Positions 3,375 to 12,583 of a DNA stretch of 64,000 nucleotides are shown here, piece by piece; position 1 is the stretch's first letter; each line of letters starts with the position of its first letter. This DNA comes from a virus (Duplodnaviria; Caudoviricetes), in the IMG/VR virus record IMGVR_UViG_2767802067_000003, positions 9,633-73,632 of that record; one strand, 5' to 3'. Below the pieces are notes generated by a model that was given only the letters and a program-made list of their open reading frames with translations, was not told where the DNA came from and ran no database searches. The position numbers were made by a program, and so were the translations under genes.

Positions 3375-3821
3375 ATGTCTGCTCTCGATTCGCTCCACGA
3401 CGCCATCGACAAGCTGGAGGACGAGGGCCACAGCCTCTCGGGCCACCTGCGTACCATCGCCGAGCACATCAAGGCCGACCTGTTCGGCGCCGGCAAGAAC
3501 GAGGCCACCACGCTGGAGACTCTGGTCCATTCCCTGGCTTCCGCGCTGTCGCCGGTCCTGGACGCCGCCAAGGCCGACACCATCTCCCAGACCAAGTCGC
3601 TGTTCGCCGACGCCCTGGCCGTGGCCGAGCCGGTCCTCAAGACCGGCACCACCGAGGCCCACCAGGCTCTCTCCGACCTGGTGACCGCCCTCAAGAGCGC
3701 CCTGGGCGGCGCCCCGGACCCGGCCACCACCGCGCCGACCAGTCCGGACCCGGCTCCGGCGGCGGACCCGGCGGCCGCGACCTCGACCGCCCCGGAGGCT
3801 GCGGCCACCGTCGCGCCGTAG
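3375..3821 (+). CDS. Hypothetical helical protein
   Basis: GAGGA RBS then ATG at 3375; GC3-rich. Confidence 0.7.
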   Translation: MSALDSLHDAIDKLEDEGHSLSGHLRTIAEHIKADLFGAGKNEATTLETLVHSLASALSPVLDAAKADTISQTKSLFADALAVAEPVLKTGTTEAHQALSDLVTALKSALGGAPDPATTAPTSPDPAPAADPAAATSTAPEAAATVAP

Positions 3822-8424: not shown

Positions 8425-10002
8425 GTGGTCGACTTCGCCAATGCGCTGGCACTGGCCGCATCTCGCCTGGAAGGCCTGTCACAGGCGACGGATCGCTTCC
8501 CGACCCCCCACGACCTCGCGAAGGCGCTCGACCCGCGGGTAGTCACCACGCCCGCGCTGGCACTGCTCGACCGCCACCTCATGGACGTCGCGGCCGGAAA
8601 GACCCGGCGCCTGATCTGGACGATGCCCCCGCAGGAAGGCAAGTCGCAGCGCGTCAGCCGTACCTTCCCCGCCTGGCTTCTCGCCCGCAACCCCGACCTG
8701 CGGATCGCGATCGCCAGCTACGAGTTTGGCACCGCCCGCCGGTGGGGCCGCGCCATCCGCAACGACATCTCTGCCAACACAGACCTGTTCGGGCTGCGAG
8801 TGCGCCATGACACCGGTGCAGCCCACGAATGGCAGCTCGAGAACCATGACGGCGGCGTCTACTCCGTCGGCATCGCCGGCGCCCTGACCGGCCGCCCAGT
8901 CGACGTGCTGATCATCGACGACCCGATCAAGGGCCGCGCTGAGGCGGAGTCGCTGGTGCAGCGGGAGAAGGTCTGGGACTTCTGGGTCGACACCGCACGC
9001 ACGCGTTTCGGTCCCAATACCGCCGTCATCGTCGTCTTGACCCGCTGGCACGAAGATGACCTCGCCGGCCGGCTCTTGGAGGCAGACAAGGCGGTCGGGG
9101 AGTGGACCTACGTCAACATCCCGGCGCAGGCCGAGACCGCTGACGACCCGCTCGGCCGCGAGCCCGGCGAGTACCTGGTCTCCGCCCGCGGCCGCGGCGT
9201 CGCTGACTGGGAGTCCACTAAGCGGGACGTCGGCGCCCGTACCTGGACCTCGCTCTACCAGGGCCGCCCCGCGCCGGCCGAAGGCGGGCTGTTCCGCCGC
9301 GACCACTGGCGCTGGTACCAGGCCCCGAAGGCCGACCAGCGCGCCGATGGCTCGTACTGGATCCCGAACGCCACCGAGGTCATCCAGTCCTGGGACATGA
9401 CGTTCAAGGACAGCAAGAGCGGTGACTTCGTCGTCGGACAGGTCTGGGCGAAGATCAACGGCCAGGTCTACCTCATGGACCAGGTCTGCGACCGCCTCGA
9501 CTTCCCCGCCACCTGCCGCGCCGTCACCGCTCTTTCCAAGCGCTGGCCGCAGGCCCACGCGAAGTTGGTCGAAGACCGGGCGAACGGGCCTGCTGTCATC
9601 TCACAACTGCGCTCCACCGTGCCCGGGCTGATACCGGTCACCCCGAAGGAGTCCAAGTTCGCGCGCGCCTCCTCCGTCGCGCCGTTCGTGGAGAGCGGCG
9701 TCGTCTGGCTTCCGGCGCCCGAGATCGCCCCTTGGATCGGCTCCTTCCTCGAAGAGACCGCCGGCTTCCCGAACGCCTCGCACGACGACCAGGTCGACGC
9801 GATGACGCAGGCCCTGCACCGGCTCCTCGCCGGATCGAACAGCGCCGACCGCGCCATGGGCTGGCTCGACTCCTACACCTCGATCCCCCGACCCGCACCG
9901 GGAACCCCCCTGGACTACCTCGATGGGAGGGCACCGCATGGCCCGATGGCCCTTCCCCCGCAAGAAGACCCCGACCCCGACGCCCCAGATGACGGGCAGT
10001 GA
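8425..10002 (+). CDS. terL: Terminase large subunit
   Basis: MPPQEGKS Walker A, LIIDDPIK Walker B, QSWDMTFK and HDDQVDA nuclease motifs. Confidence 0.95.
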   Translation: MVDFANALALAASRLEGLSQATDRFPTPHDLAKALDPRVVTTPALALLDRHLMDVAAGKTRRLIWTMPPQEGKSQRVSRTFPAWLLARNPDLRIAIASYEFGTARRWGRAIRNDISANTDLFGLRVRHDTGAAHEWQLENHDGGVYSVGIAGALTGRPVDVLIIDDPIKGRAEAESLVQREKVWDFWVDTARTRFGPNTAVIVVLTRWHEDDLAGRLLEADKAVGEWTYVNIPAQAETADDPLGREPGEYLVSARGRGVADWESTKRDVGARTWTSLYQGRPAPAEGGLFRRDHWRWYQAPKADQRADGSYWIPNATEVIQSWDMTFKDSKSGDFVVGQVWAKINGQVYLMDQVCDRLDFPATCRAVTALSKRWPQAHAKLVEDRANGPAVISQLRSTVPGLIPVTPKESKFARASSVAPFVESGVVWLPAPEIAPWIGSFLEETAGFPNASHDDQVDAMTQALHRLLAGSNSADRAMGWLDSYTSIPRPAPGTPLDYLDGRAPHGPMALPPQEDPDPDAPDDGQ

Positions 10003-12583
10003 CGCCTCCAGCCTGGAGAAGTCCACGCAGGCAGCGGCCGTCCACACCTTCTCCTCGGAGCAGGTCGCAGCGCTGCTCGCCTCCACCCAGCTCGGCGCCG
10101 GCACCACGGGGTCGTTCAGCCCTCTGCCGCGCATCGAGCCCATGGTCGCGTTCGGCCCCGGCATGCCGCTGCTGCCGACCGCGTTCGACCCGGTCAACCC
10201 GGAGACCGGCCGCACTCCGCCGCGCTTCTCCGAGTACCCGGTCAGCGTCAACCTTCCCGGCATCACTGACCGCCTGGTGCCGTGGAAGGTACTGCGCGAC
10301 TCCGCCGAGGTCGGCTTGCCCCGCCGCTGCATCGAGATCCGCAAGTCACACGTGGTCTCCCTGGAGTGGGCGATCGTCATCTCCAAGGACGCGATCGCCC
10401 AAGCCCAGGCTGCGAACCCGTCTGCCCCCCGCGCAGAGATCGAAGCCGATCTGCGGCGCAGTCTCGGATCCGAGATCGCGCGGTGCACCGCGTTCTGGTC
10501 CAGGCCGGACCCTGGCCAGGACGAAGAGTGGCCCGAATGGATCAGCAAGCTGCTGGAGGAGCAGCTGGTCCTCGACGCGATAGCGATCTACCCGCGCCGC
10601 ACCCGCGGCGGGGGCCTGTACGCCCTGGAGATCGTGGACGGCTCCACGATCAAGGTCCTGCGGGACCACCGCGGCGGCAAGCCGCTGCCGCCGAACCCGG
10701 CCTACCAGCAGCTCCTGTGGGGATTCCCCCGGGGCGAGTACACCGCGGACACCGACGACGACCAGAACATCCTGAACCCGTACGACGACGACACGCTGAT
10801 CTACAAGCGGCGCAACGTCCGCTCGTTCACCCCGTACGGGTTCTCCGCTGTCGAGCAGTGCCTCACCGACCTCGACGTGTGGCTGCAGCGCCGCAACTGG
10901 ATCCGTTCGGAGTACACCGACGGCACCGTCCCCACCGGATTCCTCAAGATGTCCTCGGACGCCGTCGGCTGGACGCCGGCCCAGGTCCGCGAGTACGAGA
11001 CCGCGATCAACGACATGTGGTCCGGCCAGCACGCCGACCGGCACCGCATGCGAATGTTGCCACCCGGCATCGACCTCGCCACCAACAGCGACGTCGCCGA
11101 GCGGTACAAGCCCGAGTACGACCTGTTCCTCATCCGGCTACTCAGCTCGCACTTCGGCGTCACGCTGCCCGAGCTGAACTTCAGCGAGCCCGGTGGCCTC
11201 GGCAGCACTGGCTATCACGAGGGCCAGGCCGATGTGCAGGAACGTTCCTCCACGATGCCTGACTACCGCTGGCTGCAGAAGCTGATCACCAGCATCTCCC
11301 ACCGGCACCTGCACATGGCGCCGCAGCTGGAGTTCAAGATTCTCGGCCTGGAGGACGAGGACGACGCTGCGGCTGACGCCGTCGCACAGGAACGCGTGCA
11401 GTGGGGCCGCACCACCCTCAACGAGGACCGGGACCTGCGTGGCCTACCGCGCTACCCCTTTCCTGAGGCGGACATGCCAATGCTCATGACGCAGCGCGGC
11501 GTCGTGTTCCTCGAAGGCGCCGCCCGGCTGGCACCGTCAGGGGAGACCGTGGGCCCTGTCCAGGCCCCGCCCGCCACCGACGAAGACGGCGACGGCATCA
11601 TCGACCGGTTCGAGGATCCGGACGCGCTTGCTGGAGACGAGGACGACGGCGCCCGCGACCAGGCGGTGAAGACCGAACTGGCCGCCTACCGGCGGTGGGC
11701 CCGACGCAACCCGCGCCCCAGCCGACCGTTCACCTTCAACACCGTCACCAAGGCCGACGCCCCCGCGCTACAAGGCGCACCAGTCGTGTTCGCCGCCGGC
11801 GGTGGTCCGGACCCAAAAGCCGGTAGCCCGGCCGTCTGGCCGGGCTGGGGCCGCGACACCGCCACCGCCGCCGCGTGGGCACCGCGTATCACGCAGGCCT
11901 TGGCCGGTGCGCTCGACTGGAATGCCCTTGCAGCAGCCTGGATCACCCACATCCACCTGGCCAAGGCCGACGACTGGGACCTGGCCCAGGCCAGCGCCTG
12001 GCTCACCGGCCAGGGGATCGACCTGAACCCGGTCATCACCGACCTCGTCCTCGGCCTGCGCACCGAGGGCTGGGCGATCGGCAGCACCGCGGCCACCGCC
12101 GCCGTCGCCGGTGAGAGCACAGCCACCTTCAACTGGACGCCTGGTGATGAGGCCGCGGCCACCCACACCCTGACCGCGACCAACCGACACGACCTGGCGG
12201 CCCATCAAGAGCAGGCCGTCAGCCAGGCCCGCGAGATCGCAACGAACCGGCTGCGCCGCCTCGCCCAAGCCCTGGCCGAGGCGAAGAACACGGGCCTCAC
12301 CGCCAGCCAGCTCGCCGACGAGCTGCGCGCAGCGATCGCCGACGCCCCGTGGGCCCGCATGCTCGCTCTCACCGAGCTGCTGCACGGCCAGTCCGCCGCC
12401 ACCACCAGCACCTACCAAGGTGCAGGCGTCAGCAGCGTCCAGTGGACCTGCGAAGACGAACCGTGCACCGCGTGCCTGGACAACGAGGACGCCGGCTCGC
12501 TCCAGCTCGGCCAGGCCTTCCCCTCCGGCGTCACGGCCCCGCCACAGCACCCCAGCTGCCGCTGCAGCCTTCTCCCCGCCTGA
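9938..12583 (+). CDS. Portal protein fused to Mu gpF-like minor head protein
   Basis: Portal N-terminal ~620 aa (IVDGSTIK, AYQQ, YGFSAVE); C-terminal WTCEDEPCTAC...PPQHPSCRC MuF motif; ATG 9938 after GGAGG. Confidence 0.9.
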   Translation: MARWPFPRKKTPTPTPQMTGSDASSLEKSTQAAAVHTFSSEQVAALLASTQLGAGTTGSFSPLPRIEPMVAFGPGMPLLPTAFDPVNPETGRTPPRFSEYPVSVNLPGITDRLVPWKVLRDSAEVGLPRRCIEIRKSHVVSLEWAIVISKDAIAQAQAANPSAPRAEIEADLRRSLGSEIARCTAFWSRPDPGQDEEWPEWISKLLEEQLVLDAIAIYPRRTRGGGLYALEIVDGSTIKVLRDHRGGKPLPPNPAYQQLLWGFPRGEYTADTDDDQNILNPYDDDTLIYKRRNVRSFTPYGFSAVEQCLTDLDVWLQRRNWIRSEYTDGTVPTGFLKMSSDAVGWTPAQVREYETAINDMWSGQHADRHRMRMLPPGIDLATNSDVAERYKPEYDLFLIRLLSSHFGVTLPELNFSEPGGLGSTGYHEGQADVQERSSTMPDYRWLQKLITSISHRHLHMAPQLEFKILGLEDEDDAAADAVAQERVQWGRTTLNEDRDLRGLPRYPFPEADMPMLMTQRGVVFLEGAARLAPSGETVGPVQAPPATDEDGDGIIDRFEDPDALAGDEDDGARDQAVKTELAAYRRWARRNPRPSRPFTFNTVTKADAPALQGAPVVFAAGGGPDPKAGSPAVWPGWGRDTATAAAWAPRITQALAGALDWNALAAAWITHIHLAKADDWDLAQASAWLTGQGIDLNPVITDLVLGLRTEGWAIGSTAATAAVAGESTATFNWTPGDEAAATHTLTATNRHDLAAHQEQAVSQAREIATNRLRRLAQALAEAKNTGLTASQLADELRAAIADAPWARMLALTELLHGQSAATTSTYQGAGVSSVQWTCEDEPCTACLDNEDAGSLQLGQAFPSGVTAPPQHPSCRCSLLPA
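11812..11846 (+). promoter_or_regulatory. Programmed -1 ribosomal frameshift signal
   Basis: In-phase C CCA AAA (11812-11818), 6-nt spacer, perfect stem AGCCCGGCC-gtct-GGCCGGGCT (11825-11846); -1 frame stops at TAG 11824-11826. Confidence 0.75.

Follow-up and report, generated by a model that had tools for sequence, protein, structure and literature searches.

A predicted dnaX-like programmed −1 frameshift site at the junction of the portal and MuF coding regions in a family of tailed phages

Two kinds of described programmed −1 frameshift system come closest to the locus reported here, both of them treated in a 2016 review of frameshifting (PMC5009743). In lambda gpG/gpGT, T3/T7 gene 10 and Lactobacillus phage A2, a −1 shift fixes the ratio between the short and the long form of a structural or assembly protein. 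In the Escherichia coli dnaX gene (tau/gamma), translation in the 0 frame yields the full-length protein, and ribosomes that shift by −1 on A AAA AAG meet a stop within one or two codons and leave a product lacking the C-terminal domain. The dnaX signal is tripartite, being composed of an upstream Shine-Dalgarno (SD)-like element, the heptamer, and a stem-loop that lies about 6 nucleotides (nt) downstream. Each of these dnaX features has an apparent or predicted counterpart in the prophage genome of a tailed phage, in a stretch of 64,000 nt (IMG/VR virus record IMGVR_UViG_2767802067_000003, positions 9,633 to 73,632; hereafter the window), at the point where a single open reading frame (ORF) passes from a portal domain to a MuF (gpF/gp7-like) domain.

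Portals are dodecamers. In phage SPP1 the MuF-type protein, gp7, attaches to the portal, and each capsid holds only 1-2 or ‘a few’ copies of it (PMC5576092, PMC6316719); MuF-type genes are positioned directly after the portal gene (PMC5576092). An earlier interpretation of the window, which we call the sequence-only reading, had noted that gpF/gp7-like proteins are of low copy number, and the gp7 figure in PMC5576092 bears this out. Given a dodecameric portal and so few copies of gp7, a mixture of portal subunits with and without a MuF domain would load a limited number of MuF domains. We consider it quite probable, from the sequence characteristics described below, that the portal-MuF junction carries a working dnaX-type programmed −1 frameshift site from which both forms would be made.

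The portal-MuF fusion ORF occupies positions 9938 to 12583 on the plus strand in the 0 frame, and from ATG 9938 it codes for 881 amino acids (95.9 kDa). The codons GAC CCA AAA GCC at 11810-11821 place a slippery heptamer, C CCA AAA, at 11812-11818 in the X XXY YYZ phase, followed by a G at 11819 that proves to be invariant. After a −1 shift, the frame reads AGC CGG and then meets a TAG stop codon at 11824-11826, only two codons past the site, such that the predicted shifted product is a 629-residue, 69.7-kDa protein ending in DPKSR. A 6-nt spacer, GCCGGT (11819-11824), separates the heptamer from a putative stimulatory hairpin at 11825-11846, whose arms AGCCCGGCC (11825-11833) and GGCCGGGCT (11838-11846) form nine perfect pairs, plus a possible U-G pair, around a GUCU loop. 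The 3′ arm of this hairpin is formed by the codons for a conserved WPGW motif at the start of the MuF domain. The heptamer, its phase, the spacer, the 9-bp hairpin and the −1 TAG are all present as the sequence-only reading had described them, and its two product lengths hold from ATG 9938, with masses that it had put at about 95 and 69 kDa.

That reading had also pointed to C CCA AAA as the frameshift site in structural genes of Lactobacillus phage A2, which reportedly does use this heptamer. The use of a −1 shift by phage A2 is confirmed by the review PMC5009743.

A further putative component, which would complete the resemblance to a tripartite signal, is an SD-like element, GGCGGTGGT, at 11798-11806 on the plus strand. 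Its sequence is complementary to the 16S rRNA 3′ end, and a gap of 5 nt lies between it and the heptamer. Its predicted duplex with the anti-SD sequence (−14.3 kcal/mol) is more stable than that of any other window in the gene. Likewise, the 45 nt following the heptamer fold with a predicted stability of −26.5 kcal/mol, compared to −13.6 ± 4.4 kcal/mol for other 45-nt windows sampled across the gene, none of which is as stable. The hairpin is not followed by a run of T residues, which rules out an intrinsic terminator, and an Rfam scan returned no family near threshold, which rules out a known RNA family.

The G+C content of the 64-kb window is 69.3%, and the sequence-only reading had argued that the two slippery codons are rare at such a composition. 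This assertion is substantiated by the portal domains of relatives, wherein CCA accounts for 3.6% and AAA for 10.7% of the codons for proline and lysine, respectively, and T or A each occupy about 5% of third codon positions. In the portal domain of the window itself, AAA is used for none of the 13 other lysine codons. Ten tRNA genes (Met, Tyr, His, three Leu, two Ser, Trp and Gln) are located at positions 331-1181. We looked among these ten for a tRNA-Lys or tRNA-Pro that might serve the slippery codons and found neither, indicating that the phage supplies no tRNAs that decode them.

Considered by itself, the site in the window does not rise above chance expectation, and its real significance comes from its relatives. 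The junction played no part in how these relatives were collected. They comprise tblastn-confirmed IMG/VR hits (using the whole protein as the query), two related genomes, and 80 metagenome contigs, the best of 330 hits, which were recovered via two peptide motifs inside the portal domain. Removal of identical junctions left 68 distinct examples with a MuF part starting at WPGW. An in-phase CCCAAAA resides a few codons 5′ of WPGW in 63 of them (L100 included), and GGGAAAA, another canonical slippery heptamer, is found at the same place in two more (L015 and L105), such that 65 of the 68 junctions carry an in-phase slippery heptamer of either form. The base after the heptamer is G in all 64 junctions analysed.

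Several characteristics of these junctions reveal that conservation acts on nucleotides rather than on amino acids. In addition to the rarity of both codons, CCA-AAA is used for none of the 64 other Pro-Lys dipeptides in the portal domains of the relatives, and the residues that flank the Pro-Lys pair vary freely. Furthermore, each of the eight bases of the signal carries 1.8-2.0 bits of positional information, whereas the flanks mostly carry 0.1-0.8 bits. We therefore conclude from the comparative sequence data that the junction is conserved as nucleotides, beyond what the protein sequence would need.

In G005, another species of the window genome's genus, a prophage portal-MuF protein that is 27-33% identical was encountered on two contigs (L005 and L006), with an in-phase CCCAAAA-G near position 3489, a hairpin with arms GGCCCC/GGGGCC, and a stop four codons along in the −1 frame.

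The relatives differ in the frame of the MuF coding region relative to that of the portal. In 40 junctions, including that of the window, MuF is in frame with the portal, and the heptamer is kept in all but one (39/40; the exception is L048). In another 26 of the 68, which we call the split arrangement, MuF is in the −1 frame. Here MuF typically begins 14 nt past the heptamer and the portal frame ends about 15 codons further on. In 17 of the 26, the stretch that runs from the upstream stop in the −1 frame to the W of WPGW contains no ATG, GTG or TTG codon, and the next possible MuF start in L059, L067, L070, L085, L093 and L099 is far downstream or absent. As a result, the conserved N-terminus of MuF in those 17 would be made only by a −1 shift. 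The two remaining cases, sister contigs L041 and L043, carry the same seven bases read as CCC AAA A, with MuF in the +1 frame.

For a fusion to be made from those two contigs (L041, 4700-4760; L043, 4690-4730), ribosomes would have to slip by +1 on the shared heptamer, which would represent a third arrangement. Separately, contigs L011 (4770-4890) and L016 (3330-3430) lack the heptamer and have MuF in the +1 frame. In these, MuF apparently starts at ATGATG inside the portal end ...GCGGATGATG... as a separate, overlapping gene. The low-GC relatives L024 and L026 exhibit a plain TAATG stop/start overlap.

In a maximum-likelihood tree built on the portal domain, most of one well-supported, deeply diverged clade consists of in-frame forms, among which split form L013 and the two +1 forms are nested. 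The other split forms fall into a clade of 18 members and a basal grade. The tree requires four or more changes of arrangement. The root is a single long-branch outgroup that is itself fused, and therefore we do not claim a direction for the frame changes. Members of the in-frame clade share as little as about 42-45% portal identity, and synonymous positions near the signal are randomised.

In the −1 frame of in-frame relatives (n = 38), a stop lies no more than two codons past the site in 39%, no more than 12 in 68%, and no more than 49 in every case, compared to 4.2%, 15% and 45%, respectively, for a null composed of all other positions of the same genes. Each of the three stop codons, TGA, TAG and TAA, is represented among the stops at two codons.

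Downstream structure was judged by per-sequence tests against the same gene and against shuffled linkers. When the 45 nt downstream of the heptamer are ranked for stability within their own gene, the in-frame class has a median rank of 0.033, with 20 of 38 below 0.05, whereas the median for the split class is 0.39. The linker-shuffle test gives p<0.05 for 17 of 33 in-frame junctions versus 1 of 18 split junctions. Moreover, the wobble base of the WPGW proline codon co-varies with its partner in the linker (G-C in 23/24, C-G in 20/28, and U with A or G). The WPGW codons usually form the 3′ arm of the hairpin, and other lineages pair the linker with a downstream CGCGAC.

Upstream of the heptamer, the motif GGTG(A/G)TG is found at −11 to −5 in both classes. 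Its T residues at third codon positions −9 and −6 are present in 34 and 36 of 64 junctions, respectively, far above the general frequency of about 5%. Predicted anti-SD duplexes average −9.0 kcal/mol across 64 relatives, relative to a background of −3.65 kcal/mol, and 41 of the 64 fall in the top 5% of their own gene. Taken together, the near −1 stops, the stable downstream structure and the upstream motif suggest that the signal is still in use in the in-frame class. These data likewise uphold the proposal of the sequence-only reading that a −1 site at the portal/MuF boundary yields the shifted product as the short form. That reading had looked to homologous portals for conservation of the heptamer, stem and −1 stop. 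The heptamer is conserved (65/68), near −1 stops and hairpins are enriched in the in-frame class, and the hairpins differ in register between lineages.

The two domains on either side of the junction were delineated by several methods. The fusion protein matches phrog_2662, annotated ‘portal protein’, with an E value of 2e-81 over residues 81-885. For the window protein, the match to PF04860 (Phage_portal) at residues 204-506 scores 28.9, below the cut-off of 39.1, and that to PF04233 (Phage_Mu_F) at 781-883 is likewise below its cut-off (E value of 2.9e-4). Among 26 full-length relatives, PF04860 is detected in 25, and PF04233 in 21 with a best E value of 7.6e-13. PHROG minor-head and head-morphogenesis families also match. 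All 60 Foldseek matches with E values of 1e-3 or better are solved portals, including those of phage 812, a gene transfer agent (GTA) and HK97, and a sequence profile search of the PDB recovered portal 8q7d with an E value of 8e-10.

The portal domain extends over positions 10103 to 11797 on the plus strand (approximately residues 61-625, counted from ATG 9923), as judged from the limits of tblastn high-scoring segment pairs (HSPs), an AlphaFold2 model, matches to portal folds, and 8q7d. The MuF domain spans 11837 to 12580 on the same strand, from the conserved WPGW motif (W639) to an invariant Cys/His cluster, and its HSPs begin at residues 637-640 in nearly all relatives. In the AlphaFold model, which was built for the fusion using the 26 relatives, the portal reaches approximately residue 625, and a helical MuF domain occupies residues 640-886 with predicted local distance difference test (pLDDT) values of about 90. 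Residues 626-635, which hold P631-K632, are the only low-confidence stretch and lie between the two folded domains. In this model the heptamer is located exactly in the disordered linker that joins the portal and MuF domains.

Six MuF residues (W639, C848, C851, H876, C879 and C881) are invariant in the 26 relatives. At the MuF C-terminus (window 12464-12580, residues 848-886), the Cys/His members of this set, C848, C851, H876, C879 and C881, resemble a zinc-binding knuckle.

An alternative start codon, ATG 9923, would extend the ORF to 9923-12583 on the plus strand, and give a fusion of 886 and a −1 product of 634 amino acids. A GGGAGGG Shine-Dalgarno sequence located 6 nt upstream of ATG 9938 is better than that of ATG 9923. 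Depending on the start chosen, the portal ORF overlaps the end of the upstream terL gene, coding for the large terminase (8425-10002), by 65-80 nt. Downstream reside a protease/scaffold-like gene, a gene for a phrog_13692 protein, an adaptor gene, and tail genes. This is the neighbourhood of an ordinary siphophage head module, and the predicted gene product is a portal with a MuF domain encoded directly after it.

We propose that ribosomes that do not shift would make the 881-residue portal-MuF fusion. Those with CCA and AAA in the P and A sites would be held from behind by SD-like pairing (GGCGGUGGU) and in front by the hairpin, and a fraction would re-pair on CCC AAA, read AGC CGG as Ser-Arg, and stop at UAG. 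The shifted ribosomes would release a 629-residue free portal that ends in DPKSR and lacks MuF. The dodecameric ring would then be assembled from mixed subunits, only some of which would bring MuF into the head. That ribosomes slip at this site, with an efficiency that sets the ratio of portal to MuF, we infer from the sequence evidence. The stronger stimulators of the in-frame class would fit a need for abundant free portal, although this association is partly confounded with phylogeny.

Three other explanations for the junction were weighed against this one. If an ancestor used a shift to reach a MuF domain in the −1 frame, and an insertion or deletion later fused the two frames, then the heptamer in the window could be a relic in a lineage where only the fusion is functionally made. 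The placement of the split forms as a basal grade on the outgroup-rooted tree would be expected from such a history, and L048, L028 and Strzyga, which are fused, manage without the heptamer. However, this polarity depends on one long-branch fused outgroup, and an in-frame clade old enough for portal identity to have fallen to about 42-45% and for synonymous sites to be randomised still keeps the heptamer and its G in 39 of 40 junctions. Moreover, the strongest hairpins and the near −1 stops belong to the in-frame class and not to the split class, which argues that selection continued, and was even reinforced, after fusion. For these reasons we regard a relic as quite improbable. Ribosomes are known to be slowed by hairpins and by SD-like sequences inside genes, and a translational pause without any change of frame might give the portal domain time to fold or assemble ahead of MuF synthesis. 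Rare codons (GGT GGT ... CCA AAA) do cluster exactly in the disordered interdomain linker, as such a pause would favour. Yet a pause needs no particular heptamer, whereas the X XXY YYZ identity and phase are invariant and the sole substitute seen, G GGA AAA, is another slippery heptamer. Nor does a pause account for MuF in the −1 frame in 26 relatives, mostly without a start codon, or give any role to −1 stops enriched just past the site, and we consider it very unlikely.

Conservation of nucleotides proves only that selection acts on the nucleic acid, and so a DNA or RNA signal unrelated to decoding (for packaging, processing or regulation), or transcriptional slippage, could in principle explain it as well. 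Polymerase slippage is established on runs of seven or more residues, and the four A residues of the heptamer are too few. The hairpin has neither the T-run of a terminator nor an Rfam match to recommend it as another kind of signal. A strict phase relative to the codons, a frame relation between MuF and the portal, and stops in the −1 frame are features that belong to a reading frame. We therefore find this last explanation hardly credible.

Several observations weigh against a working frameshift site. In the 64-kb window, CCCAAAA occurs at the frequency expected by chance (2 versus 1.9 expected), and the fold of a 96-nt segment at the site is no better than those of dinucleotide shuffles (z = −0.73). 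RNAalifold recovered no alignment-wide consensus structure from 32 junctions, a result that stems from the different registers of the hairpins between lineages. The association between hairpin strength and arrangement is confounded with phylogeny, because the in-frame forms largely constitute one clade. Compared with dnaX, less distance separates the SD-like element from the heptamer, and the case for its putative role consists of duplex energies. Finally, L048, L028 and Brevundimonas phage Strzyga are fused without a slippery site, and thus a portal ring made entirely of fusion subunits may be viable and may be tolerated. Of these, L028 (from a Nevskia metagenome-assembled genome) was the one distant fused relative found when genome contigs were scanned with a single protein, and it carries no heptamer. 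Strzyga, which lacks CCCAAAA, came from a phage collection that yielded distant relatives only.

Given the programmed −1 shift that we favour, a more ambitious interpretation can be tentatively entertained, though we lean somewhat against it. The family might constitute a recoding switch whose polarity was flipped several times while its output ratio was held by retuned stimulators. Where the shift makes the fusion as a minor product, weak or no downstream structure would suffice. Where the shift must make the free portal as the major product, as in the window, selection would have added a stop directly after the shift, a strong hairpin and an SD-like element. If so, very high −1 efficiencies, well above 50%, would be expected in the in-frame class.

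The same layout is evident in cultured phages. Gene 3 of Arthrobacter phage Sonali, annotated as a ‘portal and MuF-like fusion protein’ of 995 amino acids, has a portal that is about 25% identical to that of the window. At codon 737 of this gene stands C CCA AAA G in phase, with GGCGGTGGT upstream, a CCCCUCC/GGAGGG hairpin 7 nt downstream, and a −1 stop after nine codons. Arthrobacter phage Mufasa8 is 61% identical to Sonali and has the same layout, with TGA in place of the TAG of Sonali, and its portal is also only about 25% identical to that of the window. Both phages have the GGTGGT motif, and neither the Sonali nor the Mufasa8 record annotates recoding. These two cultured phages make the frameshift idea directly testable.

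The Sonali protein has an additional peculiarity. Its residues 536-669 (L110, 3750-4150; NC_049478.1 gene 3) are 48% identical to a ‘hydrolase’ of Streptomyces phage Gilgamesh, and the RefSeq copy of Mufasa8 labels the whole portal gene ‘MutT/NUDIX hydrolase’. It seems that an extra enzyme domain has been inserted between the portal and the predicted frameshift site of Sonali.

Full-text literature searches revealed no published account of a portal/MuF frameshift. The word ‘portal’ is absent from the first 300,000 characters of the 2016 frameshifting review (PMC5009743) and from the PRFect paper. Two Burkholderia phage papers that contain ‘cccaaaa’ do so only in tables of ribosome-binding sites and are irrelevant. 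If our hypothesis is correct, the portal, which is the central organiser of tailed-phage heads, would join the short list of phage genes decoded by frameshifting. Covalent tethering dosed by recoding would explain how few copies of MuF/gp7-type proteins come to reside on a 12-subunit ring. Genes now annotated as plain fusions, or as a portal followed by a MuF ORF whose start is missing or wrongly placed, would represent cases where annotation pipelines miss one product. The family also offers a natural experiment, wherein one heptamer is combined with three placements of MuF (−1 frame, in frame and, in two cases, +1 frame), and stimulator strength tracks the arrangement.

Among known systems, the portal-MuF fusions of actinobacteriophages (Microbacterium clusters EA3, EA5, EA8 and EB, PMC7302621; also Sonali gene 3) exhibit the same domain architecture, and those genes are annotated and described as plain fusions with recoding unmentioned (PMC7302621). 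As with SPP1 gp6 and gp7, the MuF-type protein of the window would be brought into the procapsid through the portal. Unlike the two SPP1 genes, whose products associate non-covalently, the tether in the window is covalent and its dosage would be set by recoding. The split relatives, with MuF in the −1 frame, follow the gpG/gpGT-type layout exactly, in that the short product is in frame and the long one would be made by the shift. In contrast to gpG/gpGT and to the capsid-extension cases, the predicted shifted product of the window is the short one, and portal plus MuF is not among the cases described. The sequence-only reading had called this the reverse of the usual arrangement, which is true relative to phage G/GT-type sites. 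E. coli dnaX, however, has exactly this arrangement.

To this picture the window adds an in-frame, dnaX-like example, a contrast in stimulators between arrangements, an upstream SD-like element, and an enrichment of −1 stops. There are also clear differences from dnaX. The heptamer is C CCA AAA, the gene is portal-MuF, the hosts are high-GC soil bacteria, and the shift is a predicted one; moreover, its SD-like element is nearer to the site, and relatives of opposite polarity exist, which is not known for dnaX. What is new is the gene pair, portal and MuF, for which a programmed −1 frameshift of the known dnaX-like layout is predicted.

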